A DNA stretch of 64,000 bases from Candidatus Micrarchaeota archaeon (GCA_026396285.1 JAPLXB010000022.1:9506-73505), one strand, 5' to 3'. Shown: positions 43,878 through 59,735, counted from the stretch's first letter. Program-made: numbers and translations. Notes: generated by a model not told the origin, from the sequence alone.

Positions 43878-44812
43878 GGGGATTCCTTTACTCCATCGCG
43901 CTCCTGCTATTCATCATTCCAATAGTGTTTTTCATAAGCAACTACTTCGCCATCGCGTCCGCAAACGACTACGAGGCAACAATAGGCATCCGGGGCAGCG
44001 AATTCGCGTCGTTCGTCAATTCAATCTCATCGGACTTGCCGCGCGCCCTCCTCATAAGCGGCCGCAACTCTGTTGCTTCGGCGGTGTCCAGCGTTACCGG
44101 GACCGGCGCGCCGCTTGACGACGCGGCCCTGCGGCTCGAGGAACTGGCGCTTAACGGGACGCTGTACGGCCACGCCGCCATGAACGCTTCCCTCTCGCGG
44201 TGGGCGCAGCGCGTGCAGGAAATCGGGCGCGCCCGCGGGTTTGAAACGCGGATGGTCTTCGAATCGCTGAATGCCAGGCAGCTGGATTCGTTCAGCCTCG
44301 AGTTTTCAGCAACCGTTTCAATAAACATTAGCGACCGGGTCTCGAGCATGAACGTTTTCAGGACGCGGCATGAGACTGCACTGCTGCCAATAAACGGCTT
44401 TGAAGACCCGCTCTATGCGCTTGAAACAAACGGCATAATGCACCGCGTCATAAGCGAGGCCAACGAGACAGTCTATGGCGTAGCGGGAGTCGACCGCGCA
44501 ATAGCACAAAAGTATTACCTGCCTGCCGGCGATGGGGCAAGCTTCCTTGACCGCCTCGAGGGCGCGACCCAGGTTTCTGAAAAATACGCGAACCTTTCCC
44601 AACAGCCAATAGGGCTGGAGACTTTCGTGGACGTGCAGGAACTGCTCGACAACGGCCTTGAAATAAAGCAGGACCGGACTGTGGTGGACCACCTTTACTT
44701 CAACGAAACCGCCCCTCCAGGTTATGCGGTGAACGGCTCGCAATACCCCTTGTTCAGGATAGATGCGGAGCACGCCGCCCTATATGGCGTGAACGGCTCG
44801 CTCGCAGGCTGA
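43868..44812 (+). CDS. N-terminally anchored extracytoplasmic protein (314 aa), prepilin-like N-terminus
   Basis: The ATG overlaps the upstream stop (ATGGGTGTGA). MGVRGFLYSIALLLFIIPIVFFISNYFAIAS then a soluble domain. The longer ORF-track start at 43658 is judged a spurious extension. Confidence 0.45.
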   Translation: MGVRGFLYSIALLLFIIPIVFFISNYFAIASANDYEATIGIRGSEFASFVNSISSDLPRALLISGRNSVASAVSSVTGTGAPLDDAALRLEELALNGTLYGHAAMNASLSRWAQRVQEIGRARGFETRMVFESLNARQLDSFSLEFSATVSINISDRVSSMNVFRTRHETALLPINGFEDPLYALETNGIMHRVISEANETVYGVAGVDRAIAQKYYLPAGDGASFLDRLEGATQVSEKYANLSQQPIGLETFVDVQELLDNGLEIKQDRTVVDHLYFNETAPPGYAVNGSQYPLFRIDAEHAALYGVNGSLAG

Positions 44813-44818
44813 GGCACC

Positions 44819-44834
44819 TTATTAAAACCGGTTT
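44819..44834 (+). promoter_or_regulatory. TATA-like element with palindrome (TTATTAAAACCGGTTT) upstream of the wHTH/ATPase gene pair
   Basis: AT-rich box centred about 25-30 nt before the TTG/ATG start at 44846-44855. The same ATTAAAACCGGTTT 14-mer recurs at 59781. Confidence 0.35.
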
Positions 44835-44845
44835 GAATAATTCCC

Positions 44846-45559
44846 TTGATTGAAATGGCTGCTGACGAAAACATTGAGACAGTCATTGACCGCTTGGTCG
44901 ATTTCGTGAAATTAAAAGGCAGGGTCAGCGCGGTCGAGGCCGGGCGGGCGCTTGGCATGAGTTCCGGCCAAGTCGAGGGCATTGCCCGGCTGCTTGAGGA
45001 CAACGGGCTCGTACAAGTGCATTACACCCTTATTGGCACGGAACTCGCCGCGGTTGGAAGGGATTTGAAGAAAAAAGAGGGGGAAAAAAGCCGTGCAAAC
45101 GAGCCGGGCGCCGTGGAGGCGTACAAGGACTTCGAATCCTTCGTCAAGGAAAGCGAGGACATTTTCGAGTTCCTCAAGGAAGAGGTCTTGAAAAAAATGA
45201 CTGCCGCCGAGTCCCTGCTGGACCGGCTGGAAAAAGAGAAACTGGACGAAAACGACAAGACCGCGGTCAGGAAGGAACTCCGCCGGGTGACAAGCACCCT
45301 CAACAACTTCGAACCCACTCTCCAAAAAATCGTGCACGGGGAAAAGGAACTTAGGAAGCGCATAAGGGAAATCAGCAAGAGGACGGCCGCTGCCGAGAGA
45401 AGTAAACCCGGGATTTGGGACGGCATCAGGGACTTTGTTGCAAAATTTAAGCGCCGGAAGAAGGGGAAAATTCCCGCTCCAAGCGCTTCTCCGAAGTCGG
45501 AGAAGCGCAAAAAGCTTTTGGAACGACTCAGCCTTTCCCGCAAAAGGGTGCTGAAATGA
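44846..45559 (+). CDS. Cytoplasmic wHTH-like plus coiled-coil protein, translationally coupled to the filament ATPase
   Basis: 237 aa. The N-terminal roughly 70 aa (VIDRLVDFVKLKGRVSAVEAGRALGMSSGQVEGIARLLEDNGLVQV) looks like a winged helix. A charged coiled coil follows. Its stop overlaps the ATPase start (ATGA). Confidence 0.45.
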   Translation: MIEMAADENIETVIDRLVDFVKLKGRVSAVEAGRALGMSSGQVEGIARLLEDNGLVQVHYTLIGTELAAVGRDLKKKEGEKSRANEPGAVEAYKDFESFVKESEDIFEFLKEEVLKKMTAAESLLDRLEKEKLDENDKTAVRKELRRVTSTLNNFEPTLQKIVHGEKELRKRIREISKRTAAAERSKPGIWDGIRDFVAKFKRRKKGKIPAPSASPKSEKRKKLLERLSLSRKRVLK

Positions 45560-47058
45560 AAGTGCTTGCAAAATACGTCATCCAAAGCGAGAACGTGCCG
45601 GCAGAGGTTACCATCGCCCAGCGCGAAGAAGAGTACATAAACACCTACGAACTCAAGCACGCGAAGGTTATGGAGGCAACGAACGTCGTCCTTAATTTCC
45701 TGAAGGAGAAAATCATTGAAGGCGTCGACATCAGGATTTCCGAAATAATGGATCCGCGCGAGGCCGAGCGCGTAAAGGAAAAAATAATCCCAACGGCCCA
45801 CGAACTCGTCAGGAAGGAACTGCCGGGCGTGAACAGGGACGAGGAAGACATCCTAGTAGGGCGGCTTGTCCAGGAAATGCTCGGACTAGGCGAAATGGAA
45901 CTCCTCCTCGCAGACGACGAGCTTGAGGAGATAGTCGTCAATTCTTCAAAAGAGCCAATCTACGTTTATCACAAGAAGTTCGGCTGGCTCAAGACCAACG
46001 TATCAGTCACGTCAGAGGAGCAGATTCACAACTACGCTTCCATCATCGGGAGAAAAGTCGGGAAACAAATCACTAACCTCAACCCGCTCATGGACGCGCG
46101 GCTCCTCAGCGGAAGCAGGGTCAATGCCACGCTGTTCCCCATCTCCTCAAAGGGCAACGGTTTCACGATAAGAAAATTTGCGAAAGACCCGTGGACCATA
46201 ATCAACTTCATCAACCCCAAGATAAACACCCTCAACGCAGAAACCGCCGCCGTAATCTGGCAGGCGGTGCAGTACGAAATGAACATAATCGTTGGCGGCG
46301 GCACCGCTTCTGGAAAAACCTCTTTCCTAAACGCCATACTTGCATTCTGCCCGCCCAACCAGAGGATTGTCTCAATAGAGGACACGCGCGAACTCGTGCT
46401 CCCCGACTTCCTCCACTGGACCCCGCTCGTCACCAGGGAACCGAACCCGGAGGGCAAGGGCGGGGTGGAAATGCTCGACTTGATGATAAACTCGCTCCGC
46501 ATGCGGCCCGACCGGATAGTGCTGGGCGAAATCAGGCGGCAGCGCGACGCAGAAGTGTTGTTCGAGGCAATGCACACGGGCCACGCCGTATGCGGGACCC
46601 TTCACGCGGATGACGCGATGCAGGTCAAGTCGCGGCTCACGAGCCCGCCCATAAACCTGCCGGAGGAAATGCTGGGCGCCCTTCAACTCACCGCAGTCCA
46701 GTACCGCCAGAGGAGGACCGGCATCAGGAGGACGTATGAAATCGCCGAATTCATGCCCGAGGGGAAGACGATGGGCATAAACACCGTTTACAAGTGGGAC
46801 CCGAAGAGCGACAGGCTGGAAAAGGTCGGGGAGGGCCTGCGCCTCATCAGCGAGCTGTCAATGCACACTGGCATGAGCATGAAGGAGATGCGCGAGGATC
46901 TGGATGACAAGAAGGACGTCCTCAACTACATGAGCGAACACCAGATTGCCTCGGTCAACGAGGTTGGAAAGGTCGTCGCGTCCTATTACCGCGACGGGGG
47001 ACGCGTGACAGAAGGAGTCCGCAAGAAAACGCCGCCCCAGAAACTCTTCGGCCGGTGA
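45556..47058 (+). CDS. Type IV filament/secretion ATPase, FlaI/TadA/GspE family (module 1)
   Basis: 500 aa. Walker A GGGTASGKTS. An Asp box. Walker B VLGEIR-type. A His box (MHTGHAV). The N-terminal domain resembles archaeal FlaI/PilB. Confidence 0.85.
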   Translation: MKVLAKYVIQSENVPAEVTIAQREEEYINTYELKHAKVMEATNVVLNFLKEKIIEGVDIRISEIMDPREAERVKEKIIPTAHELVRKELPGVNRDEEDILVGRLVQEMLGLGEMELLLADDELEEIVVNSSKEPIYVYHKKFGWLKTNVSVTSEEQIHNYASIIGRKVGKQITNLNPLMDARLLSGSRVNATLFPISSKGNGFTIRKFAKDPWTIINFINPKINTLNAETAAVIWQAVQYEMNIIVGGGTASGKTSFLNAILAFCPPNQRIVSIEDTRELVLPDFLHWTPLVTREPNPEGKGGVEMLDLMINSLRMRPDRIVLGEIRRQRDAEVLFEAMHTGHAVCGTLHADDAMQVKSRLTSPPINLPEEMLGALQLTAVQYRQRRTGIRRTYEIAEFMPEGKTMGINTVYKWDPKSDRLEKVGEGLRLISELSMHTGMSMKEMREDLDDKKDVLNYMSEHQIASVNEVGKVVASYYRDGGRVTEGVRKKTPPQKLFGR

Positions 47059-47061
47059 AGC

Positions 47062-47937
47062 ATGATGAAGCCAGCGGTTCCATTCAGCCTCATTCCCCCC
47101 AGGGCGTTGTTCGCCGCGGGAAAAAAATACGCGGCGCTCGGCATCCAATTGACACGCGCCTTTTCCGAACTGAAGACTAACCTCGCCCAGGCGGAAATGG
47201 AAATTGCGGCAGCGGAGTACGCCGCGGCTTCCCTTGTTTCAGCGGCGCTCAACACCGCATTCATCCTCATCCTCATACTGTTCTTCGGCTACCTCGCGTC
47301 GGCAAACGTCCTGACGGCGGCACTGGCCCTTGCACTGGTCACCGGCGCAAGCTCGTTCCTGACCGCCGTATACTACCCGAAAATAATCGCCCTCCGCCGC
47401 AAAAGAAAACTGGAGGACAACCTTGTTCCGGCGGTGCGCCAGCTCGTTATAGAACTCAAGTCGGGGGTGCCGTTGTTCGAGGCCATGACGAGCGTTTGCG
47501 ACGACTACGGCGAAGTGTCGGAAGAGTTCAAAAAAATAGTCAAGAAAATAAACGCCGGCGAGGCCGAAATAGACGTGCTCGGCGACGCGAGCCGCCGACT
47601 GCCGTCAGTGCAGTTCCAGAAAGTCATCTGGCAGATATCAAACGCCCTGAAAGTCGGGTCGGACGTGAGCAACGCGCTTGAAGCAATACTCGAGGACTTG
47701 ACCGCCGAGAAAATAAACGAAATCAAGAGATACTCCCAGGAGCTTTCGCCATGGACAATGGTTTACATGATGACTGCAGTCATACTCCCCTCGCTCGGAA
47801 TCACTCTCGGGATAGTCATACTGTCGTTCCTGAGCGTCTCGGTTCCCAGGATGATATTCGCGGTGGCGATCGTCTTCCTCGTCATCTTCCAGTTGTTTTT
47901 CATGAACTTCCTTGGAACGCGACGGCCCGCGATATGA
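47062..47937 (+). CDS. TadB/TadC(FlaJ)-like polytopic membrane platform protein, single T2SS-F domain
   Basis: 291 aa. A cytoplasmic helical domain between TM1 and TM2 (VPAVRQLVIELKSGVPLFEAM...) is typical of the GspF/TadC fold. Confidence 0.65.
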   Translation: MMKPAVPFSLIPPRALFAAGKKYAALGIQLTRAFSELKTNLAQAEMEIAAAEYAAASLVSAALNTAFILILILFFGYLASANVLTAALALALVTGASSFLTAVYYPKIIALRRKRKLEDNLVPAVRQLVIELKSGVPLFEAMTSVCDDYGEVSEEFKKIVKKINAGEAEIDVLGDASRRLPSVQFQKVIWQISNALKVGSDVSNALEAILEDLTAEKINEIKRYSQELSPWTMVYMMTAVILPSLGITLGIVILSFLSVSVPRMIFAVAIVFLVIFQLFFMNFLGTRRPAI

Positions 47938-48990
47938 GTGATTGAATTGTTTGAAAAAATATACTACCAAACTGCCGAAATATTCCCGCCTTCCGCGGTG
48001 GAGAAAACCAGGGAGCTCCTGCAGCAGGGCGGAATAGAAAAAATAAGCCCGAAGGTGTATCTTGGACTCGGCACATACCTTTCAACCGCGCTCGCCCTCA
48101 TTGCCTTCTTCCTGGCCCCCATTTTCGTTCCCGGCCAGCATCCTGCCGCATACGTCGGAATAGCCGTGGCCGTCCAACTCCTCGCCGGCATACTCTTTTA
48201 CCTGAACCTGACAATGACCGCGGAAAACAGGGCTGAAAAAATAGAGGCAATGCTTCCCGAAATGCTCCAGATAATTTCCGCAAACATACGGGCGGGAATG
48301 ACCCTGGAAAACGCGGTCTGGTCCTCAGCAAGGGAAGAATTCGGGCCGCTGAGGGACGAGATAAAGAAGGTTTCGGCAGACGCGTACCGCGGAATACCCA
48401 TACAAGATGGAATGCTGAACATGAGCAAGAGAATACGGTCAACCCTCGCCGAAAGGGCGATAAAACTCATAGTGGAAGGGATTGCAAAAGGGGGGGAAAT
48501 GACCCGCCTACTTGACCGCGTGGCATGGGACCTCAAAAGCGCCCAGACGCTGCGCAAGGAAATAACGACGGCCACCCTGACTTACTCGCTTTTCATTGTT
48601 TTCGCCGCAGTCATCGTAAGCCCCCTCCTGTTCTCCGTCTCCACCTACTATTCGGAAATGAATGAAAAAATAGCGGAAAAAACCACTGCCTCGCCAGAAC
48701 TCAACATGTCCAAATCAGTGAGGGGCGGCCCGATGACCTATTCCGCCATCCCCATCATGGGCTTCGGGCAACGGCCAAAAGACATGATAACCTCGAACGA
48801 AATAAAGCTCTTCGCGTACGCGGCAATAATAATCACAACCGCTTTCAGCGCCCTCCTGCTCGGAGTGATTCGCTACGGGAAGCCCAGCAAGGGCCTGAAA
48901 TTCCTCGTCTTGTTCGTCGTCCTCGGGCTCGCCGTGTTTTCGCTCGCCCACGATTTCCTGACAGCCGCCTTCTCAAGCATCATGCGATAA
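47938..48990 (+). CDS. TadB/TadC(FlaJ)-like membrane platform protein, second single-domain paralogue
   Basis: 350 aa. A GTG start lies immediately after the TGA of the previous gene. Same T2SS-F-like layout (LPEMLQIISANIRAGMTLENAV...). Confidence 0.65.
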   Translation: MIELFEKIYYQTAEIFPPSAVEKTRELLQQGGIEKISPKVYLGLGTYLSTALALIAFFLAPIFVPGQHPAAYVGIAVAVQLLAGILFYLNLTMTAENRAEKIEAMLPEMLQIISANIRAGMTLENAVWSSAREEFGPLRDEIKKVSADAYRGIPIQDGMLNMSKRIRSTLAERAIKLIVEGIAKGGEMTRLLDRVAWDLKSAQTLRKEITTATLTYSLFIVFAAVIVSPLLFSVSTYYSEMNEKIAEKTTASPELNMSKSVRGGPMTYSAIPIMGFGQRPKDMITSNEIKLFAYAAIIITTAFSALLLGVIRYGKPSKGLKFLVLFVVLGLAVFSLAHDFLTAAFSSIMR

Positions 48991-49063
48991 GGCACGCTTT
49001 TACCATGCCCCTCCGCCGCGCGATTAAAACGATTTTTATACCAAACGCGCTTTCCCTTTAATC

Positions 49064-49861
49064 ATGGCAAAGAAAAAGCAAACGCCACTGCACAGGGCCC
49101 GCGCAAGCCGCGCCGCGCCGGCAGAACACGAACGCCGCGAAAAGACTCCCGCCGAAGCCGCTCCTGCAGGGGAGTCGCCGAAGGTCAAGTCGGGGATTCC
49201 GGGTTTGGACAGGCTCATTGGCGGCGGCTTCGAGAGGGAAAGCGTGGTGCTCGTCACCGGCGACGCGGGAAGCGGGAAAAGCACATTGGCCATGCAGTTC
49301 CTGTGCAACGGCGCCAGCCAATACGACGAGCCGGGCATACTCATAACGTTCGAGGAACGCCGCGAGGACATAATCAAGCACATGAAGTCCTACGGCTGGG
49401 ACATCGAGGCATTGGAAAAGGAGAAGAAAATAAAGATACTTGAATACCCCCCGCACGAAGTGGAGCGCTTCATTTCAGAAGGCGAAATAATCCGCGACCT
49501 CATATCAGACCTCAAGGCGAAACGCATGGTGATAGACTCCATGACTTCCTTCGCGCTCGTTTTCGACAACGAGTACAAGATGAGGCTAGGGGTGCTGAAG
49601 GCGATTGATTCCCTGAAAAAATGGGGGTGCACTGCGCTCCTGATTTCCGAAGGAAGCGTGACCGAACAAGGCGAGGTCAGGGACCGTTTCGGCATAGAAT
49701 ACCTCGTCGACGGCACGATATACCTGTATAACAAGCGCGTGCGCGACTACCGCCAGAAACTCGTTGAAATCGTGGAACTCAAGGGCGTCAAACACGACAA
49801 CGCAATCCACCAGCTCGTCTTCGGCAGGAAGGGAATAAGCGTAGAGGAAAGATCCGCATGA
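49064..49861 (+). CDS. KaiC/FlaH-like RecA-superfamily ATPase
   Basis: 265 aa. GIPGLDRLIGGGFERESVVLVTGDAGSGKSTLAMQFL (KaiC-type Walker A) and Walker B MVIDSMT. A Lys/Arg/Ala-rich N-terminal tail. A TATA-like element sits 23 nt upstream of the ATG. Confidence 0.7.
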   Translation: MAKKKQTPLHRARASRAAPAEHERREKTPAEAAPAGESPKVKSGIPGLDRLIGGGFERESVVLVTGDAGSGKSTLAMQFLCNGASQYDEPGILITFEERREDIIKHMKSYGWDIEALEKEKKIKILEYPPHEVERFISEGEIIRDLISDLKAKRMVIDSMTSFALVFDNEYKMRLGVLKAIDSLKKWGCTALLISEGSVTEQGEVRDRFGIEYLVDGTIYLYNKRVRDYRQKLVEIVELKGVKHDNAIHQLVFGRKGISVEERSA

Positions 49862-50958
49862 AGGCGCAGACAGCGGTCGAACTCCTAGTCATCCTCGCGG
49901 CCGGCCTCATTGTGATAGGCATACTCTTCGTCTCCAGTTACGAGCGCCTCGCGGGCTCCCAGGCTTCGCTCTCGGTTTCGCAGGCCCAGGCGGCCGCAAA
50001 CGACTTGGCCAACGCGGCGGACACGGTGTGGTTCGAGGGCGCCGGCGCGAAGAAAAACGTTTACATCGAACTGCCGAACGCAATAAACTACTCGCTGGTT
50101 TCCGGAAACACCGTGCTGTTCAGGGTCGCCGTCCCATCCGGCCTCACCGACGCGGTCGCGAAATCAACTGCGCCCCTGTTTGGCTCAGTGACCGCGAAAC
50201 CGGGGGCCCAACTCGTGAGCGTCTACGCCACCGAGTCCGCCGTGGTAATCGGCATGCAGTCCCTCGCGGCAGACCCCGCACTCCTACTCACCCAGGCATT
50301 CGCGTCCAACGCCACTCAAAACGTGCAAAAAACATTCAACGCCTCCAACAACGGAAACTCTTCGCTCGACGTTACCGCCGCCCTAGCATGGAGCAGCGGC
50401 GGCGTGAATGTCTCGTTCGCCAACCCCTCCGACTCCTACTTCTCTCTCGCGCCCGGCGCCAGCCGCTCGATAACCCTGAACGAGGCCGTTGGCGCCAACG
50501 TCATGGGCTCGTTTTCGGGAAGCGTCCTGCTGAACGCAAGCAACGGCGAGGAGGCCACAGTGTACGTGGTCGTGGAAGTGTCGCCGCCTTACTGCCCATC
50601 GTGCCCCGGCTGCCCGCCCTGCGGAGGCGGCGGGAACGAGACGGTCTCCTGGTTCGAGATAACCACGTGCCCCGATGCCTCGTGCACGAGGGAACAGCTG
50701 GTCTTCGACGCCGGCAACGACTCGCAGGTCGACATATTCAGCACCGGGTCGTGGGACAGGAACTCCCTCCTCACGATAAACGTGTCCTACCCCAACGGCA
50801 CGAGCGTGCCCGGCTACCCGAAAGACGTCAGCACGACCTTCATCGGAAGCTTTTCCGACTACTGGGTCTTCGCCCCAGGCGCGCCAAACGGAACATACAC
50901 CGTGCGCGTAAACCAAAGCCCGTACTCCAATTACACGGCGTTCAACGTGACATGCTGA
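49858..50958 (+). CDS. Class III signal peptide protein (366 aa) with C-terminal Cys/Pro cluster
   Basis: MKAQTAVELLVILAAGLIVIGILFV (K-A|Q, E at +5). The ATG overlaps the kaiC-like stop. C-terminal PPYCPSCPGCPPCGGGGNE. Confidence 0.55.
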   Translation: MKAQTAVELLVILAAGLIVIGILFVSSYERLAGSQASLSVSQAQAAANDLANAADTVWFEGAGAKKNVYIELPNAINYSLVSGNTVLFRVAVPSGLTDAVAKSTAPLFGSVTAKPGAQLVSVYATESAVVIGMQSLAADPALLLTQAFASNATQNVQKTFNASNNGNSSLDVTAALAWSSGGVNVSFANPSDSYFSLAPGASRSITLNEAVGANVMGSFSGSVLLNASNGEEATVYVVVEVSPPYCPSCPGCPPCGGGGNETVSWFEITTCPDASCTREQLVFDAGNDSQVDIFSTGSWDRNSLLTINVSYPNGTSVPGYPKDVSTTFIGSFSDYWVFAPGAPNGTYTVRVNQSPYSNYTAFNVTC

Positions 50959-50968
50959 GGAATTTGAA

Positions 50969-53128
50969 ATGAAAAACCGCACCATCCTCGTCTTCGCAGC
51001 CATTCTCGCGCTCCAAGCCTCCGCGGCGATATCGGTGGCGATGGTCTCCCCACCCGCCAACCAGACCACCAACCTCACCCAGGGAAACTTCTTCAACATG
51101 ACCGTAAACGTAACCTGTTCCGGCACCCCGTGCGGAAACGTCAGCATGGTCTCGCAGCACAACTCGAGCGGCGAAATCGGCGGCGGCGAAAACGGGCCCC
51201 TCGCCATATCCGCGCCCACCATCGTCAACGACTACGCTGCAGTCACCGCCAACGCCTTTGCGGGCGCGATGACCATCCAGGTGGACTCGGCGGCCGCGTT
51301 CTCCGCTGGAAACGAGATACTCGTGACGCAGGTCCAGAACGCGAGCGCAGGGGTTGCGGGCGCGCACGAGTTCGCCACCCTCCTCGGAATATTGGGCAAC
51401 ACGCTCTACCTTACAATCCCCCTCGCCAACAGTTACTACACTTCCTCGCAAAACTCCACCTCTGCCACCGCCGCCCAAGCAGTCCGCGTTCCCCACTACA
51501 CCACCGTCAACGTCACCGCCACAGGGTCAATAATCGCCAAGCCATGGGACGGCTACACCGGAGGCGTCATCGCGTTCAAGGCCAACTCAACCGTTACCGT
51601 AACCGGCTCGATAAACGCGACCGGCACAGGATTCAGGGGCGGCAGCGGAGTCTCTGGCGCCCAGACAATCACTTTCGCATACCAAGGCGAGTCATTCACC
51701 GGCACCGGCGCCTCATCCAACCTCTCCAACAAAGGCGGCGGCGGGGGCGGCTTCAACAACTTCGAAGTATTCTCCGGAATGAGCGGCGCATCTGGCGGAG
51801 GAGGCGGCTACTCTTCAACAGGCACAAACGGTTACCAATCGCCCGAGGGCCAGCCCGGCGGCATCAACGGCTCGACATATGGCCTCCCCGCGCTTTCGCT
51901 CCTCATGCTCGGGTCTGGCGGGGGCGGCGGAGGCACTGACAACAACGGCAGCATCGGCAACGGCACCGACGGCGCCACAGGAGGAGGAATAATTTACGTT
52001 TCAGCGGACAAGGTGGTCGTGACCGGCAGCGTACTCTCCAACGGCGCCAACAGCCAAGGAAGCACCTCCACGTACGCCGGCTCAGGAGGCGCAGGCGCAG
52101 GCGGCTCAACCCGCCTGAGGGCAAACAACCTCACAATCGGAAACCGTTTGGTCAACGCGAGCGGCGGAACCGGCGGCTGCAGCGCCTCGCCCTACTGCGG
52201 AGGCAACGGCTCCACTGGAAGGATAAGGCTGGATTACGCCGCCCTCAGCGGTTCTTCGGGGCAACCGTCCGGCTACAACGGGTCCGCTCCCCTCCCGCCG
52301 GGTTACGTAAACATATCAAACGCTTCCGGGAACTACCCGTTCTACACCACCTCGCCCCAGCCGCAGTACTGCACGCTTTCCGCCGGCCAGTCATGCCTAG
52401 TGACCTGGCAAGTCAATACAACCGCCCAAGTCGCGACAATCTACCTACTCCGCGGCTACGCGCGGAGCACCACCCAATCCAACGCCTCAACCCCCTCCAC
52501 GGTAGTGGTTTACGCCAGGCCAGGGCCCAGGGGCGTCGCCACCTCCAAAAGCGCCTACACTGTCTGCGGCAAGCTCTACTTCCGCATCTCCGCCTTCGGC
52601 CCGTCCGGAAACCCGGTGAACGCGCCCATAAACTACAAGATAATCGACGCCGCAGCCGCGGTCCAACAAGACCGGAACGTGACAACGCCCGGCGGTTCCT
52701 ACTATGGAACATGTCCGCTCTCAAACCCGCTGGCGCGCGGCGAATGGACCATAAAAGCGATGAGTGCATTCACACGCGGCCTCGGCTCGTTCATAGCCGG
52801 CGCAGGCAACGCCGAGCCGTGGAGGACTGACCTCGCGCTAGACGGCAACAAAGTCAAGTACCGGCGCGGCGAAAACCTCGCCGCAACCGCCACAGTCTAT
52901 TCAATGGACGGCCTCGGACTCGAAAGCCTATTGGCCGCAAACCGGCTGAAGATGTTCATCGACTCGACGGACGTCACCGCCACCGCCTCCGACCTGGGCC
53001 AAGGCAGTTACTCGTTCACCTACAACACATCCTCGCTGGGCGGGGCAGTCCACTCGGTGCGCGCCTTCGCAAACACGACCGCGGGAGTCCAAGTCACAAC
53101 AGTGAAGTCGTTCTATCTCTTCGGGTGA
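50969..53128 (+). CDS. Secreted Gly-rich repeat protein (Sec-type signal peptide)
   Basis: 719 aa. MKNRTILVFAAILALQASAAISVA signal. Long GGxGGxG tracts and N-x-S/T sequons. No class III motif. Confidence 0.5.
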   Translation: MKNRTILVFAAILALQASAAISVAMVSPPANQTTNLTQGNFFNMTVNVTCSGTPCGNVSMVSQHNSSGEIGGGENGPLAISAPTIVNDYAAVTANAFAGAMTIQVDSAAAFSAGNEILVTQVQNASAGVAGAHEFATLLGILGNTLYLTIPLANSYYTSSQNSTSATAAQAVRVPHYTTVNVTATGSIIAKPWDGYTGGVIAFKANSTVTVTGSINATGTGFRGGSGVSGAQTITFAYQGESFTGTGASSNLSNKGGGGGGFNNFEVFSGMSGASGGGGGYSSTGTNGYQSPEGQPGGINGSTYGLPALSLLMLGSGGGGGGTDNNGSIGNGTDGATGGGIIYVSADKVVVTGSVLSNGANSQGSTSTYAGSGGAGAGGSTRLRANNLTIGNRLVNASGGTGGCSASPYCGGNGSTGRIRLDYAALSGSSGQPSGYNGSAPLPPGYVNISNASGNYPFYTTSPQPQYCTLSAGQSCLVTWQVNTTAQVATIYLLRGYARSTTQSNASTPSTVVVYARPGPRGVATSKSAYTVCGKLYFRISAFGPSGNPVNAPINYKIIDAAAAVQQDRNVTTPGGSYYGTCPLSNPLARGEWTIKAMSAFTRGLGSFIAGAGNAEPWRTDLALDGNKVKYRRGENLAATATVYSMDGLGLESLLAANRLKMFIDSTDVTATASDLGQGSYSFTYNTSSLGGAVHSVRAFANTTAGVQVTTVKSFYLFG

Positions 53129-53133
53129 ATTGA

Positions 53134-53532
53134 GTGAAGGCTCAAGTGGGAATGGACTTGCTCATCGCTTCAATAATACTATTCCTGGTGTTTCTATCCG
53201 TCTTCAGTTTCTACTCGCTGCAATTCCAGGCATCCGAAGAGACAAAACAGCGGGCCAGCGCCTCCCGCATCGCCGAACTAATCGCATGGAACGCCAACGG
53301 CATACTCCAATCAATGAACGGCACCACGACAGTAATCAGAATCCCGCCGCTCCTCGCAACCGGCGACAACTACTCCATACTGTTCGTCACGCGCCAAGTC
53401 ATCGTTTCCTGGAAAAACAAGTCTGAATCGAGGCCGCTGCTCACCCGCGCGGTATCCGGCGCCGGTGCGGCCGCGCCCGGAAAAAACGTTTCAATAACTA
53501 ATGCCGACGGGGGAATCGCCTTTGCATCCTAG
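53134..53532 (+). CDS. Class III signal peptide protein (132 aa)
   Basis: MKAQVGMDLLIASIILFLVFLSVF (K-A|Q, Asp at +5). Confidence 0.5.
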   Translation: MKAQVGMDLLIASIILFLVFLSVFSFYSLQFQASEETKQRASASRIAELIAWNANGILQSMNGTTTVIRIPPLLATGDNYSILFVTRQVIVSWKNKSESRPLLTRAVSGAGAAAPGKNVSITNADGGIAFAS

Positions 53533-54094
53533 GACGCCAAACCAAGCGGAACAACTGGCCCGCCCGACAGCCACCGGCCGGCAATCAAGGGGGCAGTTGT
53601 TCAGCATAGACATACTTGTGGCAGTCACAATCGCGCTATTCCTCTTCATAACAGCCACAACCTTGTCCACGAGAGTGATGAACGTGCTTGGAATATCGGA
53701 ACAGGAGATTGAACTCAATGCCGCGGCAGAAGCCGCCGCCGCCCAGCTTGCGGCATCACCGGGCAACCCCCTCAACTGGGACGCATTGTCATTCAGCGAC
53801 GCGTCAGTGAACTCAATCGGCCTCGCAGAGTCAAGGAACGTGCTTGCCCCCGCCAAGGTAGGCGCCTTTTTCGCCCTCGCCTCAAACCAGACCGCCCTGC
53901 CGCTCGTCAAGAAAATGCTAGGCGTCAGCCGCCCTGGCTACGGTTTTTCAGTCAGAATCTACAACCAGACCGGCTCGCTGGTAAACGGCTTCAGCACTGG
54001 CGCGGGAACAGGAAAGCCCGCGACCGTCGCCGAACGAATCGGAGTCCTCAACGGGTCCCTCGTGAGACTCAGCGTAGGTGTTTGGATTGAATGA
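53522..54094 (+). CDS. Class III signal peptide protein (start uncertain, TTG at 53522)
   Basis: ...SRGQLFSIDILVAVTIALFLFITATTL (R-G|Q, Asp at +5). It overlaps the upstream gene. The ORF-track ATG at 53501 gives an atypically long leader. Confidence 0.4.
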   Translation: MHPRTPNQAEQLARPTATGRQSRGQLFSIDILVAVTIALFLFITATTLSTRVMNVLGISEQEIELNAAAEAAAAQLAASPGNPLNWDALSFSDASVNSIGLAESRNVLAPAKVGAFFALASNQTALPLVKKMLGVSRPGYGFSVRIYNQTGSLVNGFSTGAGTGKPATVAERIGVLNGSLVRLSVGVWIE

Positions 54095-54518
54095 AAACCG
54101 GAGAAAGGGGTTTTTCTTCACGCTGGACGCGCTGCTTGCAGTAGCGTTTTCAATCGCCATATTCATCCTCGTAGTCAAAACGCTTGAAACCGCCCAAACA
54201 ACCGCCTCTGCCGACGTCGGCCTCGCGAGACTGGGCCAGGACCTGCTCGCCGGCATGGAAAAAAACGGCGCACTGGCTGAAGCCGTGCTGACCTCCTCCG
54301 GCGCCATCCTATCCGCCTCAACAGGAGTGCTTCCACCGGACATGTGCGGAAAAATAACCGTGAAAAAAAGCCCGGGCAACGCAGTCATCCTCGCGAACAG
54401 CCCCTCCTGCCGGTGCACGGAACGCAGGGTCGCGGCCTCCCGAAGCTTCGCCACCGCCGCAACCGGTTTTGACGAGTACGTTGCCTCAATAGAATTGTGC
54501 AGGAGGAAAAACACATGA
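54078..54518 (+). CDS. Class III signal peptide protein (146 aa)
   Basis: MFGLNENRRKGFFFTLDALLAVAFSIAIFILVV (K-G|F, Asp at +5). Confidence 0.5.
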   Translation: MFGLNENRRKGFFFTLDALLAVAFSIAIFILVVKTLETAQTTASADVGLARLGQDLLAGMEKNGALAEAVLTSSGAILSASTGVLPPDMCGKITVKKSPGNAVILANSPSCRCTERRVAASRSFATAATGFDEYVASIELCRRKNT

Positions 54519-55372
54519 CACAAAAAGGCTTCGTGTTCGCACTCTTCTTCCTCTCCTTCTTCACGCTCCTCCTAGGCGTCGCAGTCTACTACGACGCCTC
54601 GGTCACCGCCTGGGAAAGGACGGTGCTGGACGCGCGGCGCGTGGAAAAAGCCTCGTTCGCGGCAGACGACGTCGCATGGGACTTGAAGAAATTCTACGGC
54701 CTCGACACCGTGGCAATAGCCAAGACCCCGACAAACTCCAGCATAACAATTTCATCCGCCATCCCATCCAATTTCTCCGACCCCGCCAGCGAATTGAGCG
54801 CCTACAAGCAGTTCCTCCAAGGCGCGTACAAAAACCAGGCGCATTCAAACGCCTCGCTCGCAGCCACCGGCAACCACCTTTTTTTCACGGGCTTGAACGC
54901 GGACTACTCCTGGAATAACGAGAGCCGCAACGCAGTGAGGATGGCTGGCGGAAACGCGTTCGCCTACACCCTGCGGGGGGCGCTGAGCGGCTACTGCGAC
55001 TTCCCGGCCTGCCCGGCAAACATCACGGGCTGGTCTTGGATCGGGTGCGGGGGAAACGCCATTGCCATAACCCTTGACATCAGGGACGCGGGAAACACGC
55101 CAGCCACGGTTTCCGGCGCAACAACCGGCTGCGTCTCGCCTTCGTCCACCAACGGGTTCTTCGTCCCGGCAGGCGCGGGAACGCTTTACGTAAGCGCCGG
55201 AAGCGTTTCAGGAACCTCTCCGGCAATCGCGCTGAACGTCACGCAGTCCCTCTCGTTCTCGTTCACGCTCGAATCCAATTTCTCCTCTGCACCGGACACG
55301 CGCGCAGTCCTACCGGCCTCGCTTTCCGTCGACGGCCAGAACTACGCGTGGCTGGCGGTTGATGAAAAATGA
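54515..55372 (+). CDS. Class III signal peptide protein (about 285 aa)
   Basis: MTQKGFVFALFFLSFFTLLLGV (K-G|F). The start is taken at the second Met of the ORF-track ORF (54497). Confidence 0.5.
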   Translation: MTQKGFVFALFFLSFFTLLLGVAVYYDASVTAWERTVLDARRVEKASFAADDVAWDLKKFYGLDTVAIAKTPTNSSITISSAIPSNFSDPASELSAYKQFLQGAYKNQAHSNASLAATGNHLFFTGLNADYSWNNESRNAVRMAGGNAFAYTLRGALSGYCDFPACPANITGWSWIGCGGNAIAITLDIRDAGNTPATVSGATTGCVSPSSTNGFFVPAGAGTLYVSAGSVSGTSPAIALNVTQSLSFSFTLESNFSSAPDTRAVLPASLSVDGQNYAWLAVDEK

Positions 55373-55410
55373 ATATATTAAGGGAACGACTAATCAACGC
55401 GGGGACTTGA

Positions 55411-57723
55411 ATGAAGAAAAAAACCGCTGCAAAGAAGGGAACGGCCGGAAAACAGGCGGCCAAAGCGCGCGCGGCCAGCGGCGCCACCCGCGCAAAGAGC
55501 CACGCGCCGGCCCATCCGGCCACCCACGCGCACCACGTAAAGAAAATACGCAAGGAAATCCACCGGGCGCGCAAGGAACTCGATAAGGCGCGTAGGAAAA
55601 TCCTCGAGGCCGCGGCGACGGCAAAAGCAGCGGCGCAAGTTCCAGTACCCGCGCCGGCACCGCTTCCGGCTCCCGCACCCAAACCAGCGCAAAAAGCCGG
55701 GGGATCCCCCATCGACGCGCTCAAGAAAATATCGTTAGGAATATCCTTCGGCAAAAAGACCGCGCCAGCGCCATCGGCCGCTCCAACGCCGGCACCCGCG
55801 GCCGCTCCTGTTGCGGAAGCGAAGCCATCCGCGGAACCAAAACCGGCCGAAGCACCTGCGCCGTCCACGGCCCCAAAACCCGGGAAAAAGGCCGCAGCCG
55901 AAAAACAGCCCAAGACGGCCGCTGTCCCTGCGCCGGAAGAGGCAACTGAACCGAAAAAAGGCGTGCTGTTCGTCGAGTCCCCGGTCGACCGGATGTGCTA
56001 CGCGCTTGAAAACGCTCCGGGCAACGAGATGATGCTGGAGGCGCTTGCGGCTGAGACAGGCGTGGACGTCGCGTCGCTTGAAAGAATAGGGAAAATCCTC
56101 CAGGAAGAAGACGTATGCGAAATGATTTACCCAGTCAACGTGTTCTCGAAACCATCCATACGGCTGGTTGCAAAACAGCAGAAAAAAGCCCTCCGGCACT
56201 TCGAGGGCGACAAGCTCCTCTCCTCGTATTCGCTTGAGGAAAGCGGGGTCCCGGCCAACGTTGAAATCTGGGAGGCCAGAAGCGAAGCAAGGCCAGTGTA
56301 CTCGATAGTCGTTTCCGCCGCCGGGCCGTACACGGAAATGTTCCTCAATTACCTGCGGGACGCGATGGCGCGCGAAGTCCCCGTCCTCACCGAGGAAATC
56401 ACCGACCCAAAAAAACTGGCCAAACTCAAGGGACGCTTCTACGCCGCATCCCAAGCCAAACTCGCCGAGGAACTCGGCAGCCTCGTTGAAGACAAGAGGA
56501 ACATGCTCGCAGGCATGCTGCTCCACCGCATGTACGGCCTCGGCGAAATAGAGTTGTTGATGGCGGACAACTGGCTCGAGGAAATAGGAATCAACAGCGC
56601 AACCGAACCCATCGGCGTATACCACAAGAAGTTCGGGTGGCTCAAGACGACGATGCGCATCCCTTCCGAGGAGGAGATATACAATTACGCTTCCCAAATC
56701 GGGAGAAAAGCCGGCAGGGACATAACGCTCCTGAACCCGCTCATGGACGCGAACCTCCTGACGGGCGACCGCGTCGCGGCCACGCTCTTCCCCATTTCCT
56801 CGTCGGGGAACACGATAACCATCCGCAGGTTCGCCCGCGTCCCCTGGACGATAACAGACTTCATCAGCCCCGCGCTCAACACGATGTCCGTCGAAATGGC
56901 TGCGTTCCTGTGGCTGTGCGTCCAGTACGAGATAAACATCATGGTGGCCGGCGGCACCGCGTCAGGAAAGACGTCGGCACTCAACACTATATCGGCGCTC
57001 ACGCCCGCTTCCCAAAGGATAGTGAGCGTCGAAGACACGCGGGAACTCAACCTCCCCAAATACCTCAGATGGAACTGGATACCGCTGACCACGCGGGGCC
57101 CCAACCCCGAAGGAAAGGGCGAAGTGGAAATGCTGGACCTCACCGTCGCCGCGCTCAGGATGAGGCCGGACCGCGTCATAGTCGGCGAAGTCAGGAGAAA
57201 ACGCGAGGCAGAAGTCCTGTTCGAAGCCATGCACACCGGCCACGCAGTCTATTCCACGCTGCACGCGGACAACGCCGTCCAAGCCATCCGCAGGCTAAAC
57301 GAGGCGCCGATAGAAATCCCCAAGACCGAATTGGATGCGCTTCACTTGATGATGGTCCAGTACCGCGACCGCCGCAAAGGCATACGGAGAACATATGAGA
57401 TAACCGAACTCACCAGCGCATCAGGCGGCGAAGTCGTCCTCAACCCGTTATACAAGTGGAGGCCCCGCGACGACACGTTCGAAAAACGCAACGACAGCCT
57501 CAGGGTTTTCGGAGAACTCAACATGCACACCGGCATGACCGTCGACGAAATAAAAAGCGACATCGGCGAAAAACAAAAAGTGCTCGAATGGATGCTGGAA
57601 AACAAGGTCACGGACATAGACAAGGTCGGTGAAGTAATGAACATCTATTACAAGGAACCCGACTCAGTCGTGTCGGCGGCGAAAAAAAAGACGCCGGTAG
57701 CCGAACTTCTTGGTGAAAAATGA
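55411..57723 (+). CDS. Type IV filament ATPase, FlaI/TadA family (module 2) with roughly 170-aa Lys/Ala/Pro-rich N-terminal extension and fused wHTH-like segment
   Basis: 770 aa. Walker A GGTASGKTS and a His box MHTGHAV. Residues 1-170 are a low-complexity basic AKP-rich region. Residues about 185-260 (VDRMCYALENAPGNEMMLEALAAETGVDVASLERIGKILQEEDV) resemble the N-domain of the stand-alone protein at 44846. Confidence 0.85.
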   Translation: MKKKTAAKKGTAGKQAAKARAASGATRAKSHAPAHPATHAHHVKKIRKEIHRARKELDKARRKILEAAATAKAAAQVPVPAPAPLPAPAPKPAQKAGGSPIDALKKISLGISFGKKTAPAPSAAPTPAPAAAPVAEAKPSAEPKPAEAPAPSTAPKPGKKAAAEKQPKTAAVPAPEEATEPKKGVLFVESPVDRMCYALENAPGNEMMLEALAAETGVDVASLERIGKILQEEDVCEMIYPVNVFSKPSIRLVAKQQKKALRHFEGDKLLSSYSLEESGVPANVEIWEARSEARPVYSIVVSAAGPYTEMFLNYLRDAMAREVPVLTEEITDPKKLAKLKGRFYAASQAKLAEELGSLVEDKRNMLAGMLLHRMYGLGEIELLMADNWLEEIGINSATEPIGVYHKKFGWLKTTMRIPSEEEIYNYASQIGRKAGRDITLLNPLMDANLLTGDRVAATLFPISSSGNTITIRRFARVPWTITDFISPALNTMSVEMAAFLWLCVQYEINIMVAGGTASGKTSALNTISALTPASQRIVSVEDTRELNLPKYLRWNWIPLTTRGPNPEGKGEVEMLDLTVAALRMRPDRVIVGEVRRKREAEVLFEAMHTGHAVYSTLHADNAVQAIRRLNEAPIEIPKTELDALHLMMVQYRDRRKGIRRTYEITELTSASGGEVVLNPLYKWRPRDDTFEKRNDSLRVFGELNMHTGMTVDEIKSDIGEKQKVLEWMLENKVTDIDKVGEVMNIYYKEPDSVVSAAKKKTPVAELLGEK

Positions 57724-58661
57724 TGGAGGTAGCCATATTTCTCTTCATCATCCCGAAAACCCTTGAAGCCCCCCTGGCGAGGAGGCTCCGCGGACTCGGC
57801 GGAAAACTCGGCTCCCTCGTCCCCGGCCTTGGATACGACCTGAGGGAACTCGGAGAAGCGGACGCGGGAAAATACGTTGCCCGCGCCCTCCTGAACTCGG
57901 TCCTCTGGGGAATCCTCCTCACGCTCCTCATATCTTTCTTCCTATTCACCACAGGAAGGCTCAAGCCCGAAATATTGGCGCAAACATTCTCAAACAATGC
58001 GGCGCTGTCATACGCCGCCGCCGGAATCCTCCCGGCAGTAGGCAGCGGAATATTCGTCACCGCCCTCCTCCTCGCGTTCCTCCTATACTACCCGCACATA
58101 CTTGCCAGGAAACTCGCGGAAACAGTGGACAAGGACTTGATATTCGCGCTCAAGGACCTCCAACTCCAGATCGGCTCAGGAGTCAGCCTGTTCAACGCCA
58201 TGGTCAACGTCTCCAAAGCCGGCTACGGCAACGTGTCCAAGCAGTTTGACTCGGTCGTAAAGGACATTTCCGCAGGCGAGGCAGAGGACGCGGCGCTTGA
58301 AAAAATGGCTGCACACACCGAATCCGAGTTCATGAAAAGGACGGTGTGGCAGATGATCACCGCCCTCCGCGGCGGCGCAAGCCTGGAAGGCGCTCTCTCC
58401 AGCATAATATCAGTGCTGAAAAGGGACCAGGCGTCCAGGATAAGAACATTCATCCATGAACTCAACCTCTGGGCCCTTGTCTACATGATAGTGGCAGTGG
58501 CGGTGCCGGGCCTCGGCTCAACGGTCCTTATCGTAATATCCGCCTTCGGAGGAATAGTGGTCACCGAAATGACTTACGTCTTCGCCCTAGTCGCCTGCTT
58601 CATCGCCGAAATAGTCATAATCGGTTTCATAAAATCAAGGAGGCCAATCGTCCACCTGTAA
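57720..58661 (+). CDS. TadB/TadC(FlaJ)-like membrane platform protein (module 2, first)
   Basis: 313 aa. The start overlaps the ATPase stop. T2SS-F-like cytoplasmic domain (LIFALKDLQLQIGSGVSLFNAM...). Confidence 0.65.
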   Translation: MMEVAIFLFIIPKTLEAPLARRLRGLGGKLGSLVPGLGYDLRELGEADAGKYVARALLNSVLWGILLTLLISFFLFTTGRLKPEILAQTFSNNAALSYAAAGILPAVGSGIFVTALLLAFLLYYPHILARKLAETVDKDLIFALKDLQLQIGSGVSLFNAMVNVSKAGYGNVSKQFDSVVKDISAGEAEDAALEKMAAHTESEFMKRTVWQMITALRGGASLEGALSSIISVLKRDQASRIRTFIHELNLWALVYMIVAVAVPGLGSTVLIVISAFGGIVVTEMTYVFALVACFIAEIVIIGFIKSRRPIVHL

Positions 58662-58718
58662 AAGCCGGCTTGAAAGAAATTGCGCTGCAAAAACTTCGCA
58701 AAAAAAAGGTCTTCAACA

Positions 58719-59735
58719 ATGAAAAAATCCATCCTGCCGATAACCGGGACTTACTACGTTATTGTAGACCTCCTGCCGCACGCGTACCGCACCGGCCTGA
58801 AGAAAAGGCTCGCGCACGCGGGAATCACGATGGACCTGGAACTATGGCTGGGCCCAATCATACTCTCCTCGCTGGTAATAGGACTCCTTTGCCTCGCCGT
58901 CGCATGGGGCCTTCTGGACGTCTTCGACCCCGTCCTCCTCGCCGCATCATTCCTCGCCGGCTTACTGATAATCATCATTGCAGCATACACCCTCCTCGCC
59001 ACCCAGATAGATGAAAGGAAGGCGCGCGTGGAAAAAGTCCTCCCCGACGCGCTGCACATCATGGCCGCCAACATACGCACCGGCGCGCCGCCAATGATCG
59101 CGTTGCGCATGACCGCGCGCCCCGAATTCGGGCCCCTAGAGGAGGAAATAAAGTACGTTACCACAAAGTCGCTGGGCACCGAGTCCTTCACCGACGCCCT
59201 CAACGAAATGTCGCACCGAATCCCCTCAGACATCTTCGCCAGAACAGTGTCGCTGATCGCGGCCAGCCTCAAGGCGGGCGGGAAACTGGCGCAACTCCTT
59301 GAAAGCGTGGCGGAAGACATCAGGGAAACCCAGGAACTGAAAGCGGAATTGGTGACGAACAGCAACCTCTACATACTGTTCATCGCCTTCACAGTCGTAA
59401 TCGGCACGCCGCTCCTGCTCGCGGTCTCCGTGCACTTCACGACCATGGTTGCAGACCTCCAAAAAGCCCCAGTCGCCGCGTCGCTGTCTGAGGAAGTCGG
59501 AGTCAACAGCATCGGCCTCATCATCAGCACGCCTTTTTCAGTGACTTTCGTGGAAAACGCGGGCTACTTTGTGATACTCATGACCAACATCTTGGCCGGG
59601 GTGCTCATGGGCGCCATCCGGGAGGGCAAGGAAACGAGCGGGTTGAAGTACGTTCCGTTCATGTTGATAATCTCGTTCATAGTCTACTTCATCGTGAAGG
59701 ACGTCATACTGCAGTTCCTGAGGTCTGCGGCCTGA
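58719..59735 (+). CDS. TadB/TadC(FlaJ)-like membrane platform protein (module 2, second)
   Basis: About 339 aa from MKKSILPITG. LPDALHIMAANIRTGAPPMIAL. Same layout as 47938. Confidence 0.6.
   Translation: MKKSILPITGTYYVIVDLLPHAYRTGLKKRLAHAGITMDLELWLGPIILSSLVIGLLCLAVAWGLLDVFDPVLLAASFLAGLLIIIIAAYTLLATQIDERKARVEKVLPDALHIMAANIRTGAPPMIALRMTARPEFGPLEEEIKYVTTKSLGTESFTDALNEMSHRIPSDIFARTVSLIAASLKAGGKLAQLLESVAEDIRETQELKAELVTNSNLYILFIAFTVVIGTPLLLAVSVHFTTMVADLQKAPVAASLSEEVGVNSIGLIISTPFSVTFVENAGYFVILMTNILAGVLMGAIREGKETSGLKYVPFMLIISFIVYFIVKDVILQFLRSAA

Follow-up and report, generated by a model that had tools for sequence, protein, structure and literature searches.

Analysis of a 64,000-nucleotide stretch of a Candidatus Micrarchaeota metagenome-assembled genome (MAG; JAPLXB010000022.1:9506-73505, hereafter the window, with positions counted from its first letter) revealed that a winged-helix domain accompanies the two secretion ATPases of a pilus-type gene cluster in two different forms. 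In module 1 of the cluster, the domain forms the N-terminal part of a stand-alone protein (the 44846 protein) that is encoded directly upstream of ATPase 1, whereas in module 2 it is fused to the N-terminus of ATPase 2. The two domains are homologous and share one fold, both arrangements recur in other genomes, and the separate gene lies almost obligatorily next to that of the ATPase. Very probably, the domain represents an accessory component of the DPANN pilus motor that has not been described. An initial annotation, made from the sequence alone, had proposed that the stand-alone protein reappears in fused form in ATPase 2 and works physically with the motor.

A winged-helix domain encoded as a separate gene and as part of an ATPase

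The stand-alone partner gene (44855-45559, + strand; ORF list) encodes 234 amino acids that are identical to the NCBI hypothetical protein P0001; the mechanical open reading frame (ORF) opens at a TTG at position 44846, and the ATG at 44855 is the likely start. The gene is followed by that of ATPase 1 (45556-47058, + strand; 500 amino acids), a FlaI/TadA-type secretion ATPase (Pfam T2SSE) that lacks a winged helix and whose start overlaps the partner stop in the ATGA at 45556-45559, as originally annotated. ATPase 2 (55411-57723, + strand) is a product of 770 amino acids in both the NCBI and Logan assemblies. ATPase 1 aligns over its full length with residues 268-768 of ATPase 2 at 51% identity (BLASTP), and because it does so end to end from residue 268, ATPase 2 has an N-terminal extension of 267 amino acids (initially put at about 260) in front of its core (residues 268-770; 56212-57723, + strand; BLASTP, Pfam T2SSE). 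This extension comprises an Ala/Lys/Pro-rich tail, likewise noticed before (residues 1-186; 55411-55968, + strand; 28% Ala, 16% Lys and 15% Pro in the translation), a winged helix (residues 191-252; 55981-56166, + strand; AlphaFold2 and hidden Markov model (HMM)) and a short linker of fixed length from the wing to the core (residues 253-267; 56167-56211, + strand; spacing in 87 fused ATPases).

Both segments are predicted by AlphaFold2 to adopt a canonical winged helix with H1-b1-H2-H3-b2-wing-b3 topology. In the 44846 protein, the domain spans residues 3-66 (44861-45052, + strand; AlphaFold2, HMM, hhalign), with helices at residues 3-21, 26-33 and 37-49, strands at 23-25, 53-57 and 62-66, and predicted local distance difference test (pLDDT) values of 95-97. 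The ATPase 2 segment shows H-b-H-H-b-b topology at a block pLDDT of 93-96 and is thus an ordered domain (core pLDDT >93) with structural similarity to its counterpart. In the 44846 protein, the winged helix is followed by two long helices (residues 86-127 and 132-183; 45110-45403, + strand; AlphaFold2, pLDDT 93-98), whose lengths and short connecting loop lead us to read them as a coiled-coil hairpin with antiparallel packing. The ORF is real and has the predicted layout of a winged helix-turn-helix (wHTH) domain followed by a coiled coil, and the two peptide strings quoted in the initial annotation are both present in the translations. Its proposal that the stand-alone protein is fused in ATPase 2 stood in part: the winged helix is common to both proteins, whereas the coiled coil is not found in ATPase 2. 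The parts also follow one another in opposite order in the two proteins, so that simple fusion of a 44846-like gene does not account for ATPase 2.

BLASTP of the 44846 protein against ATPase 2 returned low-complexity matches only and no alignment of the wHTH segments. Among 120 close homologues of ATPase 2, lengths are bimodal, with about 30 proteins lacking an extension and about 85 carrying one of at least 78 amino acids. All extended ATPases have a conserved domain of about 75 amino acids right before the core, with the consensus T.ID..C..L, then LA..L, then vErigKiLqe.GivE..YPvN...KP...L. An HMM of this ATPase N-domain, made from 85 other ATPases with ATPase 2 and its closest relative P0004 left out, matched the ATPase 2 winged helix with 80 bits, the partner orthologue P0002 with 53 bits and the 44846 protein with 42.5 bits (E 1.8e-12 among 687 window ORFs; next ORF 4.4 bits). 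In specificity controls, no PDB sequence scored above 23 bits with the profile, and other HTH ORFs of related loci scored 11-15 bits. Alignment of 50 stand-alone proteins with 42 ATPase N-domains by hhalign gave 98.4% probability and an E value of 1e-14 over 58 columns, in the register proposed in the initial annotation with a 2-residue gap. The reciprocal HMM, made from the stand-alone domains, matched residues 206-258 of ATPase 2 weakly (14.4 bits, E ~1e-3) and 87 fused ATPases with a median of 32 bits. By these profile comparisons, the winged helices of the 44846 protein and ATPase 2 are members of one domain family, which bears out the similarity noticed by eye.

As judged from database searches, this family is not covered by any described one. 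Pfam returned generic wHTH families below threshold for the 44846 N-domain (best MarR_2, 17.4 bits against a cut-off of 27) and no family at E <= 10 for the ATPase 2 segment; searches of NCBIfam and PDB sequences gave sub-threshold generic wHTH matches for the former and none for the latter, and Foldseek with the ATPase 2 winged helix found generic winged helices only. The fold is common to PF25212, MarR, Rrf2, FeoC, HTH_24 and the window domains, but the window domains reach no Pfam cut-off. PF25212 (HVO_A0114; gathering cut-off 27.6 bits) matched neither of them; it matched 4 of 42 ATPase N-domains at E <= 0.1, of which only P0049 passes (28.7 vs 27.6 bits). This lead was dropped: the 95-135 kb region of H. 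volcanii pHV4 is without a pilus ATPase gene, and HVO_A0114 was not located there among the new-style locus tags. Pfam, NCBIfam, the archaeal type IV pilus (T4P) census (PMC4858521) and full-text literature searches yielded no account of the domain, in agreement with the earlier suggestion that the component had not been described.

The domain accompanies the ATPase across genomes

The ATPase side of this association was surveyed in 80 loci of ATPase 1 relatives from GTDB species genomes, of which 9 are cut at a contig edge and 71 are evaluable. The MAG labels are Micrarchaeota, Aenigmatarchaeota, Woesearchaeota, Pacearchaeota, Nanoarchaeia, Altiarchaeota, Iainarchaeum and Nanohaloarchaea, with a few Methanosarcinales and one Campylobacterales. 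The domain is present in 61 of the 71 loci, 58 times in the adjacent upstream co-directional gene (35-63 bits) and three times fused. Of the 58 upstream genes, 41 have the domain at the N-terminus, 13 at the very C-terminal end and two in an internal position; the remaining two are broken (L033, L040). In the 13 loci with a C-terminal domain, this domain abuts the ATPase start and is colinear with the fused form. Frameshift artefacts were rejected as the source of these split C-terminal forms, as 13 independent genomes share the junction and fall into coherent ATPase subclades. Throughout DPANN phyla, with ATPase identities of 47-69%, the two genes have remained adjacent, with a stop/start overlap.

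Seen from the partner side, 21 metagenome loci were retrieved with the motif [IVL]ETVIDRLx[DE], taken from a 15-sequence alignment, and in all 16 with a continuing contig an ATPase ORF lies directly downstream of the stand-alone protein. A partner orthologue with 50% identity is found in the same gene order as in the window (VWA protein, 315-amino acid protein, partner gene, ATPase, T2SSF). A profile of the 44846 protein matched 416 representative clusters at E <= 1e-3; among the best 150 of these, none has an ATPase core and 149 are recognized by the ATPase N-domain HMM with at least 25 bits. Fusion of the domain to the ATPase N-terminus occurs in about 90 protein clusters. The separate gene and the fused domain that had been contrasted in the window are thus both recurrent states, and the split genes stay adjacent.

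In a rough neighbour-joining (NJ) tree of 201 ATPase cores, a mainly split clade that holds ATPase 1 is set apart from a mainly fused clade that holds ATPase 2, and the ATPase subclades agree with the type of partner. 'Short' ATPases are nested within the fused clade, and all three that are evaluable have an upstream partner gene bearing the domain (47-52 bits). On this rough tree, the distribution suggests about seven switches between fused and non-fused states. Module 2 was considered and rejected as a recent duplicate of module 1, given that the two ATPases are 51% identical and belong to two different major clades; as the ATPases lie in different clades, the modules are old paralogues, each with its own version of the domain.

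Some loci of the survey stand out by label or content. The split arrangement is seen in L063, L074 and L078, MAGs labelled 'uncultured Methanosarcinales archaeon', and a locus without the domain, L023, is labelled 'Campylobacterales bacterium'; either these are mis-binned DPANN contigs or the system extends beyond DPANN. In a Micrarchaeota locus, the gene 5' of the ATPase (L029:4629-5663) is without the family domain, and its N-terminus resembles by eye an Lrp/AsnC-type HTH, so that it may be an ordinary regulator replacing the partner.

A fixed position towards the ATPase and variable partners at the other end

In 87 fused ATPases, 24-32 residues (median 26) separate the wing Tyr from the first core residue, and the stretch ahead of the domain ranges from 0 to about 247 residues. 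Fixed domain-core spacing combined with a variable front tail is more easily reconciled with a domain that is docked than with one on a free tether. The modules attached to the domain vary widely: a coiled-coil hairpin and basic tail in the 44846 type, about 500 amino acids of coiled coil in many Micrarchaeota, a CBS pair in L024, L026, L054 (Pfam-confirmed) and L059 (and, by sequence inspection only, in L027 and L056), a ParA/MinD ATPase in L024, C2H2 zinc fingers with Lys-rich tails in P0264, and Lys/Pro-rich low-complexity tails. The N-terminal partners in the 13 loci with a C-terminal domain are CBS pairs or ParA/MinD, and a C-terminal domain that abuts the ATPase start with such modules in front points to an adaptor-like architecture.

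Two arrangements are more elaborate. An Aenigmatarchaeota MAG (JACQIA010000002.1; L024:4267-5996) has a CBS+wHTH gene (4267-4989; domain copy 56.7 bits) and a ParA/MinD+wHTH gene (4977-5996; 36.9 bits) before a single ATPase, and with two domain-bearing genes in front of it, one motor may accept more than one adaptor. The proteins P0236, P0259 and P0265 (491-546 amino acids) consist of an N-terminal winged helix, DUF2226 and then a C-terminal family winged helix; the TFIIE-alpha match of the N-terminal winged helix is weak and just above cut-off (Pfam on P0236; P0259 and P0265 by sequence similarity). DUF2226, an uncharacterised archaeal family, may thereby be linked to pilus motors.

In the stand-alone family, 80 representative homologues at E <= 1e-10 span the winged helix and the two-helix region; the latter is kept throughout, with F106, E141 and F152 conserved (50 homologues). 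In the 44846 protein it is followed by a cationic amphipathic helix (residues 187-201, IWDGIRDFVAKFKR; hydrophobic moment 0.76) and a Lys/Arg-rich tail (residues 202-234; together 45413-45556, + strand). Comparable helices occur near the C-terminus of many partner homologues, e.g. IGSFIQRFSRLFHR and FGNRFLQNVSRLFR, and the C-terminal end of the 44846 protein is a candidate membrane-targeting or polyanion-binding part. The ATPase 2 tail holds a basic helix VKKIRKEIHRARKEL and a hydrophobic-basic motif GGSPIDALKKISLGISFGKK (residues ~97-116), both kept in P0004 (VK+IRKEIHRAR+EL and GG.S.I..L.KIS....FG+K). Conservation of these motifs and identical calls of the 770-amino acid product in the two assemblies show that the tail is no junk sequence.

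Many fused tails open with MGF(L/I)..A+ or hold a similar hydrophobic-basic motif. The ATPases of L018, L019 and L021-L023 (Nanohaloarchaea and related), which have no winged helix, carry Lys/Glu-rich tails that open with GIFSEYFSKK or GIFSGFFGKK. MGF(L/I)..A+ and GIFSEYFSKK-like stretches may represent a short membrane-binding motif. Together with the cationic helices, the hydrophobic-basic tail motifs suggest membrane tethering, although the statistic behind the helices is weak. Amphipathic-helix scoring of partner tails was discarded as a discriminator, being suggestive only, because coiled coils likewise give high moments.

Proposed role of the domain and alternative explanations

The near-obligate adjacency, the stop/start overlap, the recurrent fusion at a single fixed position and the variability of the opposite end together point to a domain that acts on the ATPase and brings variable regulatory or tethering parts to it, and fusion and adjacency suggest direct contact between the two. 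We favour, with modest confidence, a function as a docking adaptor that would couple variable regulatory or tethering modules to the pilus ATPase. The winged helix would sit as a protein-protein adaptor on the N-terminal face of the ATPase hexamer, attached covalently in ATPase 2 or delivered by the co-translated upstream gene in the case of the 44846 protein and ATPase 1; the ATGA overlap suits co-translated partners. The coiled-coil hairpin, amphipathic helix and basic tail of the 44846 protein would be a candidate membrane tether or stator, and the Ala/Lys/Pro-rich basic tail of ATPase 2 would be the module coupled through the domain. Elsewhere, CBS pairs would be candidate adenine-nucleotide sensors, ParA/MinD a candidate positioning factor, and zinc fingers or further winged helices other modules coupled to the motor.

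Several observations weigh against a docking adaptor. The domain is missing in 10 of the 71 evaluable loci, five of which have Lys/Glu-rich tails of about 200 amino acids instead, and it is therefore not indispensable to the ATPase family. Many fused ATPases bear the winged helix without a further module (extensions of 78-86 amino acids), so that it must be active by itself as well and not merely connect. All of its structural neighbours are winged helices that bind DNA, RNA or protein, none of these ligands prevailing, and the C2H2 zinc fingers, Lys-rich tails and TFIIE-alpha-like winged helix among its partners are characteristic of proteins that bind nucleic acids. The statistical case for amphipathic helices is weak (mean moment 0.61 vs 0.50 in shuffled tails, and inflated by coiled coils). 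Finally, the recognition helix of the fused ATPases is about neutral (-0.3) and not acidic.

In the stand-alone domains, by comparison, 86-91% of recognition helices carry a net negative charge (mean -1.8 to -2.2), with a near-invariant Glu at the centre, and the wing is not basic. A mostly acidic recognition helix and a non-basic wing argue against canonical DNA binding. It is nevertheless possible, if rather unlikely, that the upstream proteins are operon-specific DNA-binding regulators and that the fused ATPases repress or activate their own pilus operon; BirA, NadR, PutA and archaeal RbkR are enzymes that also regulate their own operons. The fold is the classic DNA-binding winged helix, with the wHTH of Lrp, MarR, ArsR and RbkR as nearest sequence or structure matches; neither window domain has an above-cut-off match in the curated DNA-binding wHTH families (MarR, ArsR, Lrp, Rrf2 etc.).

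The position of the partner gene also suits a regulator, as it is the first of its unit, right behind a TATA-box-like element (TTATTAAAA; 44819-44827, + strand; 28-36 nucleotides 5' of the ATG at 44855; read from the sequence). This element is likely the promoter of the wHTH gene, ATPase 1 and the platform genes; the string ATTATTAAAACCG is also found 5' of the orthologue in L001, and a similar string in L008. A perfect 10-bp palindrome, AAACCGGTTT (44825-44834), lies between the TATA-like box and the partner start codon, and was rejected as an operator since it is not kept in the orthologous locus L001 and no common inverted repeat occurs upstream of orthologues. CBS+wHTH and zinc finger+wHTH partners resemble one-component regulators, but 1:1 fusion to a hexameric motor at fixed spacing in about 90 clusters is unusual for a regulator, and overlap and adjacency kept across DPANN phyla are more typical of subunits of one complex.

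Much less probable is a nucleic-acid-handling machine, in which the domain together with basic tails or zinc fingers would bind nucleic acid at the cytoplasmic face of a DNA or RNA import or export device. A guiding function, with the domain directing the hexameric ATPase as the FtsK gamma domain does on DNA, is similarly improbable. The Lys/Ala/Pro-rich ATPase 2 tail and the Lys/Arg-rich tails or zinc fingers of many partners would fit such a machine, as would matches of both window ATPases to VirB11/TrbB conjugation ATPase models (NCBIfam, under cut-off) and the reliance of DPANN archaea on hosts for nucleotides. On the other hand, the side of the domain that should face DNA is acidic or neutral, a candidate class III-signal pilin and TadB/C-like platform genes are typical of filament assembly, and Pfam scans of the cluster revealed no DNA-processing genes. 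We know of no competence pilus in which the ATPase contacts DNA.

That unrelated winged helices merely share a fold and lie next to ATPases by coincidence is barely credible: the lack of a BLASTP match, the weak reciprocal match of 14.4 bits and the absence of a Pfam family covering both domains are outweighed by HMM scores of 42.5 and 53 bits against 4.4 for the next ORF and at most 23 for generic winged helices, by the hhalign probability of 98.4% and by adjacency in 58 of 71 ATPase-side and 16 of 16 partner-side loci.

The gene cluster and its neighbours

The pilus-type supercluster covers about 40.3-60.8 kb of the window, and every long ORF within it is on the + strand (ORF list, Pfam). 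In both modules, an ATPase and two T2SSF genes score above cut-off. The ATPases reach 112.1 (ATPase 1) and 116.8 bits (ATPase 2) with T2SSE PF00437 (cut-off 24.9) and have the Walker A motifs GGGTASGKTS and AGGTASGKTS, respectively; the nearest solved structures are A. fulgidus GspE2 2OAP (E 1e-71), then FlaI 4II7 and CpaF 8RKD. Both missed the archaellum FlaI equivalog NF058587 (291.5 and 275.6 bits against a cut-off of 550), and on these scores we class them as relatives of archaellum FlaI, not as FlaI itself.

Upstream of the partner gene lie a VWA-domain protein of 1189 amino acids (40308-43877, + strand; ORF list, Pfam) and an unannotated ORF (43658-44812, + strand). A VWA-domain protein of about 1190 amino acids is thus found two genes 5' of the partner gene in the window as well as in the orthologous contig (L001:1089-4661), and such proteins have been recorded near archaeal T4P loci before (PMC4858521). 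No MoxR partner was seen, as the ORF preceding the VWA gene (39199-40317) is without a Pfam match. ATPase 1 is followed by the two T2SSF/TadB-TadC-like platform genes of module 1 (47062-47937 and 47938-48990, + strand; Pfam T2SSF, 67.9 and 52.4 bits) and a KaiC-family single-domain ATPase (49064-49861, + strand; Pfam PF06745, 194 bits). Archaellum FlaH/ArlH belongs to the same KaiC family, and the module 1 protein scores under the cut-offs of the NCBIfam ArlH/FlaH models. Unlike module 1, module 2 has no KaiC-family gene in the Pfam scan of window ORFs.

Between the modules lie several unannotated ORFs (49858-55372, + strand), some with weak pilin-like DUF7287 matches (at 53134-54094) far under the family cut-off (Pfam). 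ATPase 2 is followed by the module 2 platform genes (57720-58661 and 58680-59735, + strand; Pfam T2SSF, 50.3 and 60.1 bits) and a candidate pilin gene (59809-60345, + strand; Pfam Class_IIIsignal, 23.2 bits against a cut-off of 23.7, E 6.6e-5). With Class_IIIsignal and DUF7287 both below cut-off, the pilin evidence is weak.

Two features outside the cluster were recorded. A mechanical ORF of 677 amino acids (35756-37786, - strand) contains tRNA-splicing endonuclease domains, with two catalytic-domain stretches and one N-terminal domain; for this enzyme it would be of unusual length, and it resembles a fusion of several units, with true gene limits that are uncertain because it is overlapped by a + strand ORF of 564 amino acids without a Pfam match (36669-38360). 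A PurD-like ATP-grasp gene (phosphoribosylglycinamide synthetase; 62368-63702, - strand) scores 53.9 bits with GARS_A and 35 bits with GARS_C. Its product would be an enzyme of purine biosynthesis, a pathway that this lineage is usually described as lacking.

Comparison with known systems

The N1 domain of the assembly ATPase is where a cytoplasmic stator or adaptor attaches in type II secretion and in type IVa pili (GspL-GspE and PilM-PilB, respectively; PMC11656802). The proposed docking adaptor resembles GspL and PilM as an accessory cytoplasmic protein that would lie on the N-terminal side of a T2SSE-family ATPase and link it to the membrane machine. Unlike the winged helix, GspL and PilM have actin-like folds, and their binding is experimental whereas ours is inferred. 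To our knowledge, neither GspL nor PilM is ever fused to the ATPase.

A second parallel is provided by TadZ/CpaE and TadA/CpaF of Tad pili, as the window has a FlaI/CpaF-type ATPase with two TadB/C-like platform genes. TadZ/CpaE is ParA/MinD-like, and L024 encodes a ParA/MinD ATPase with the family winged helix upstream of the ATPase. TadZ, in contrast, is without a winged helix, and the solved CpaF, FlaI and GspE2 structures are without a wHTH. The NTD0 of CpaF is a variable disordered N-terminal tail with no folded domain and is dispensable for pilus extension (PMC11300603); as a variable tail, whose function in NTD0 is not known, it resembles residues 1-186 of ATPase 2.

In the archaellum, FlaX or FlaC-D-E and FlaH are motor accessory proteins around FlaI (PMC4858521). 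The window likewise encodes a coiled-coil cytoplasmic accessory protein and a KaiC-family ATPase beside a FlaI-type ATPase, but no sequence relationship with the archaellum accessory proteins was found, and no archaellin genes are present among the scanned genes of the cluster. Near archaeal T4P loci, the census lists KaiC, VWA/MoxR, TFIIB and unrelated transcription regulators (PMC4858521). Pilus ATPases are also controlled by an N-terminal domain or a separate cofactor, as with MshEN of MshE/PilB and the PilZ-FimX cofactors (PMC11656802). The CBS-wHTH partners parallel this idea of a sensor input to the motor, whereas MshEN and PilZ-FimX are bacterial, of another fold and with cyclic di-GMP as ligand. 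FtsK, a DNA translocase of the FtsK-HerA superfamily, ends in the gamma domain, a C-terminal winged helix that binds DNA (KOPS) and XerD. There, too, a related ring ATPase bears a winged helix, which modulates the motor, but the window domain is N-terminal and the recognition helix of its family mostly acidic. GspL/PilM, TadZ/CpaE, MshEN, PilZ-FimX and CpaF NTD0 are functional analogues, and none is homologous.

Archaeal type IV pili possess an ATPase and a platform protein; outside the archaellum, we know of no equivalent there of PilM, GspL, TadZ or MshEN-like sensor domains. Such a stator or adaptor component would be supplied by a domain family that follows the ATPase through the DPANN lineages. 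It would also hint at how minimal host-attached cells regulate or anchor the filaments that are thought to mediate host contact. The domain profile would annotate hundreds of 'hypothetical' genes (the 416 representative clusters), and domain proteins can be produced recombinantly although the source organisms are uncultured. Here, a pilus machine of known type carries a probable accessory domain not described before, which bears on archaeal cell-surface biology. If it is indeed a docking adaptor, the winged helix would be a universal docking plug that wires CBS sensors, MinD-type ATPases and membrane tethers to motors, and thus the missing archaeal counterpart of PilM and GspL.

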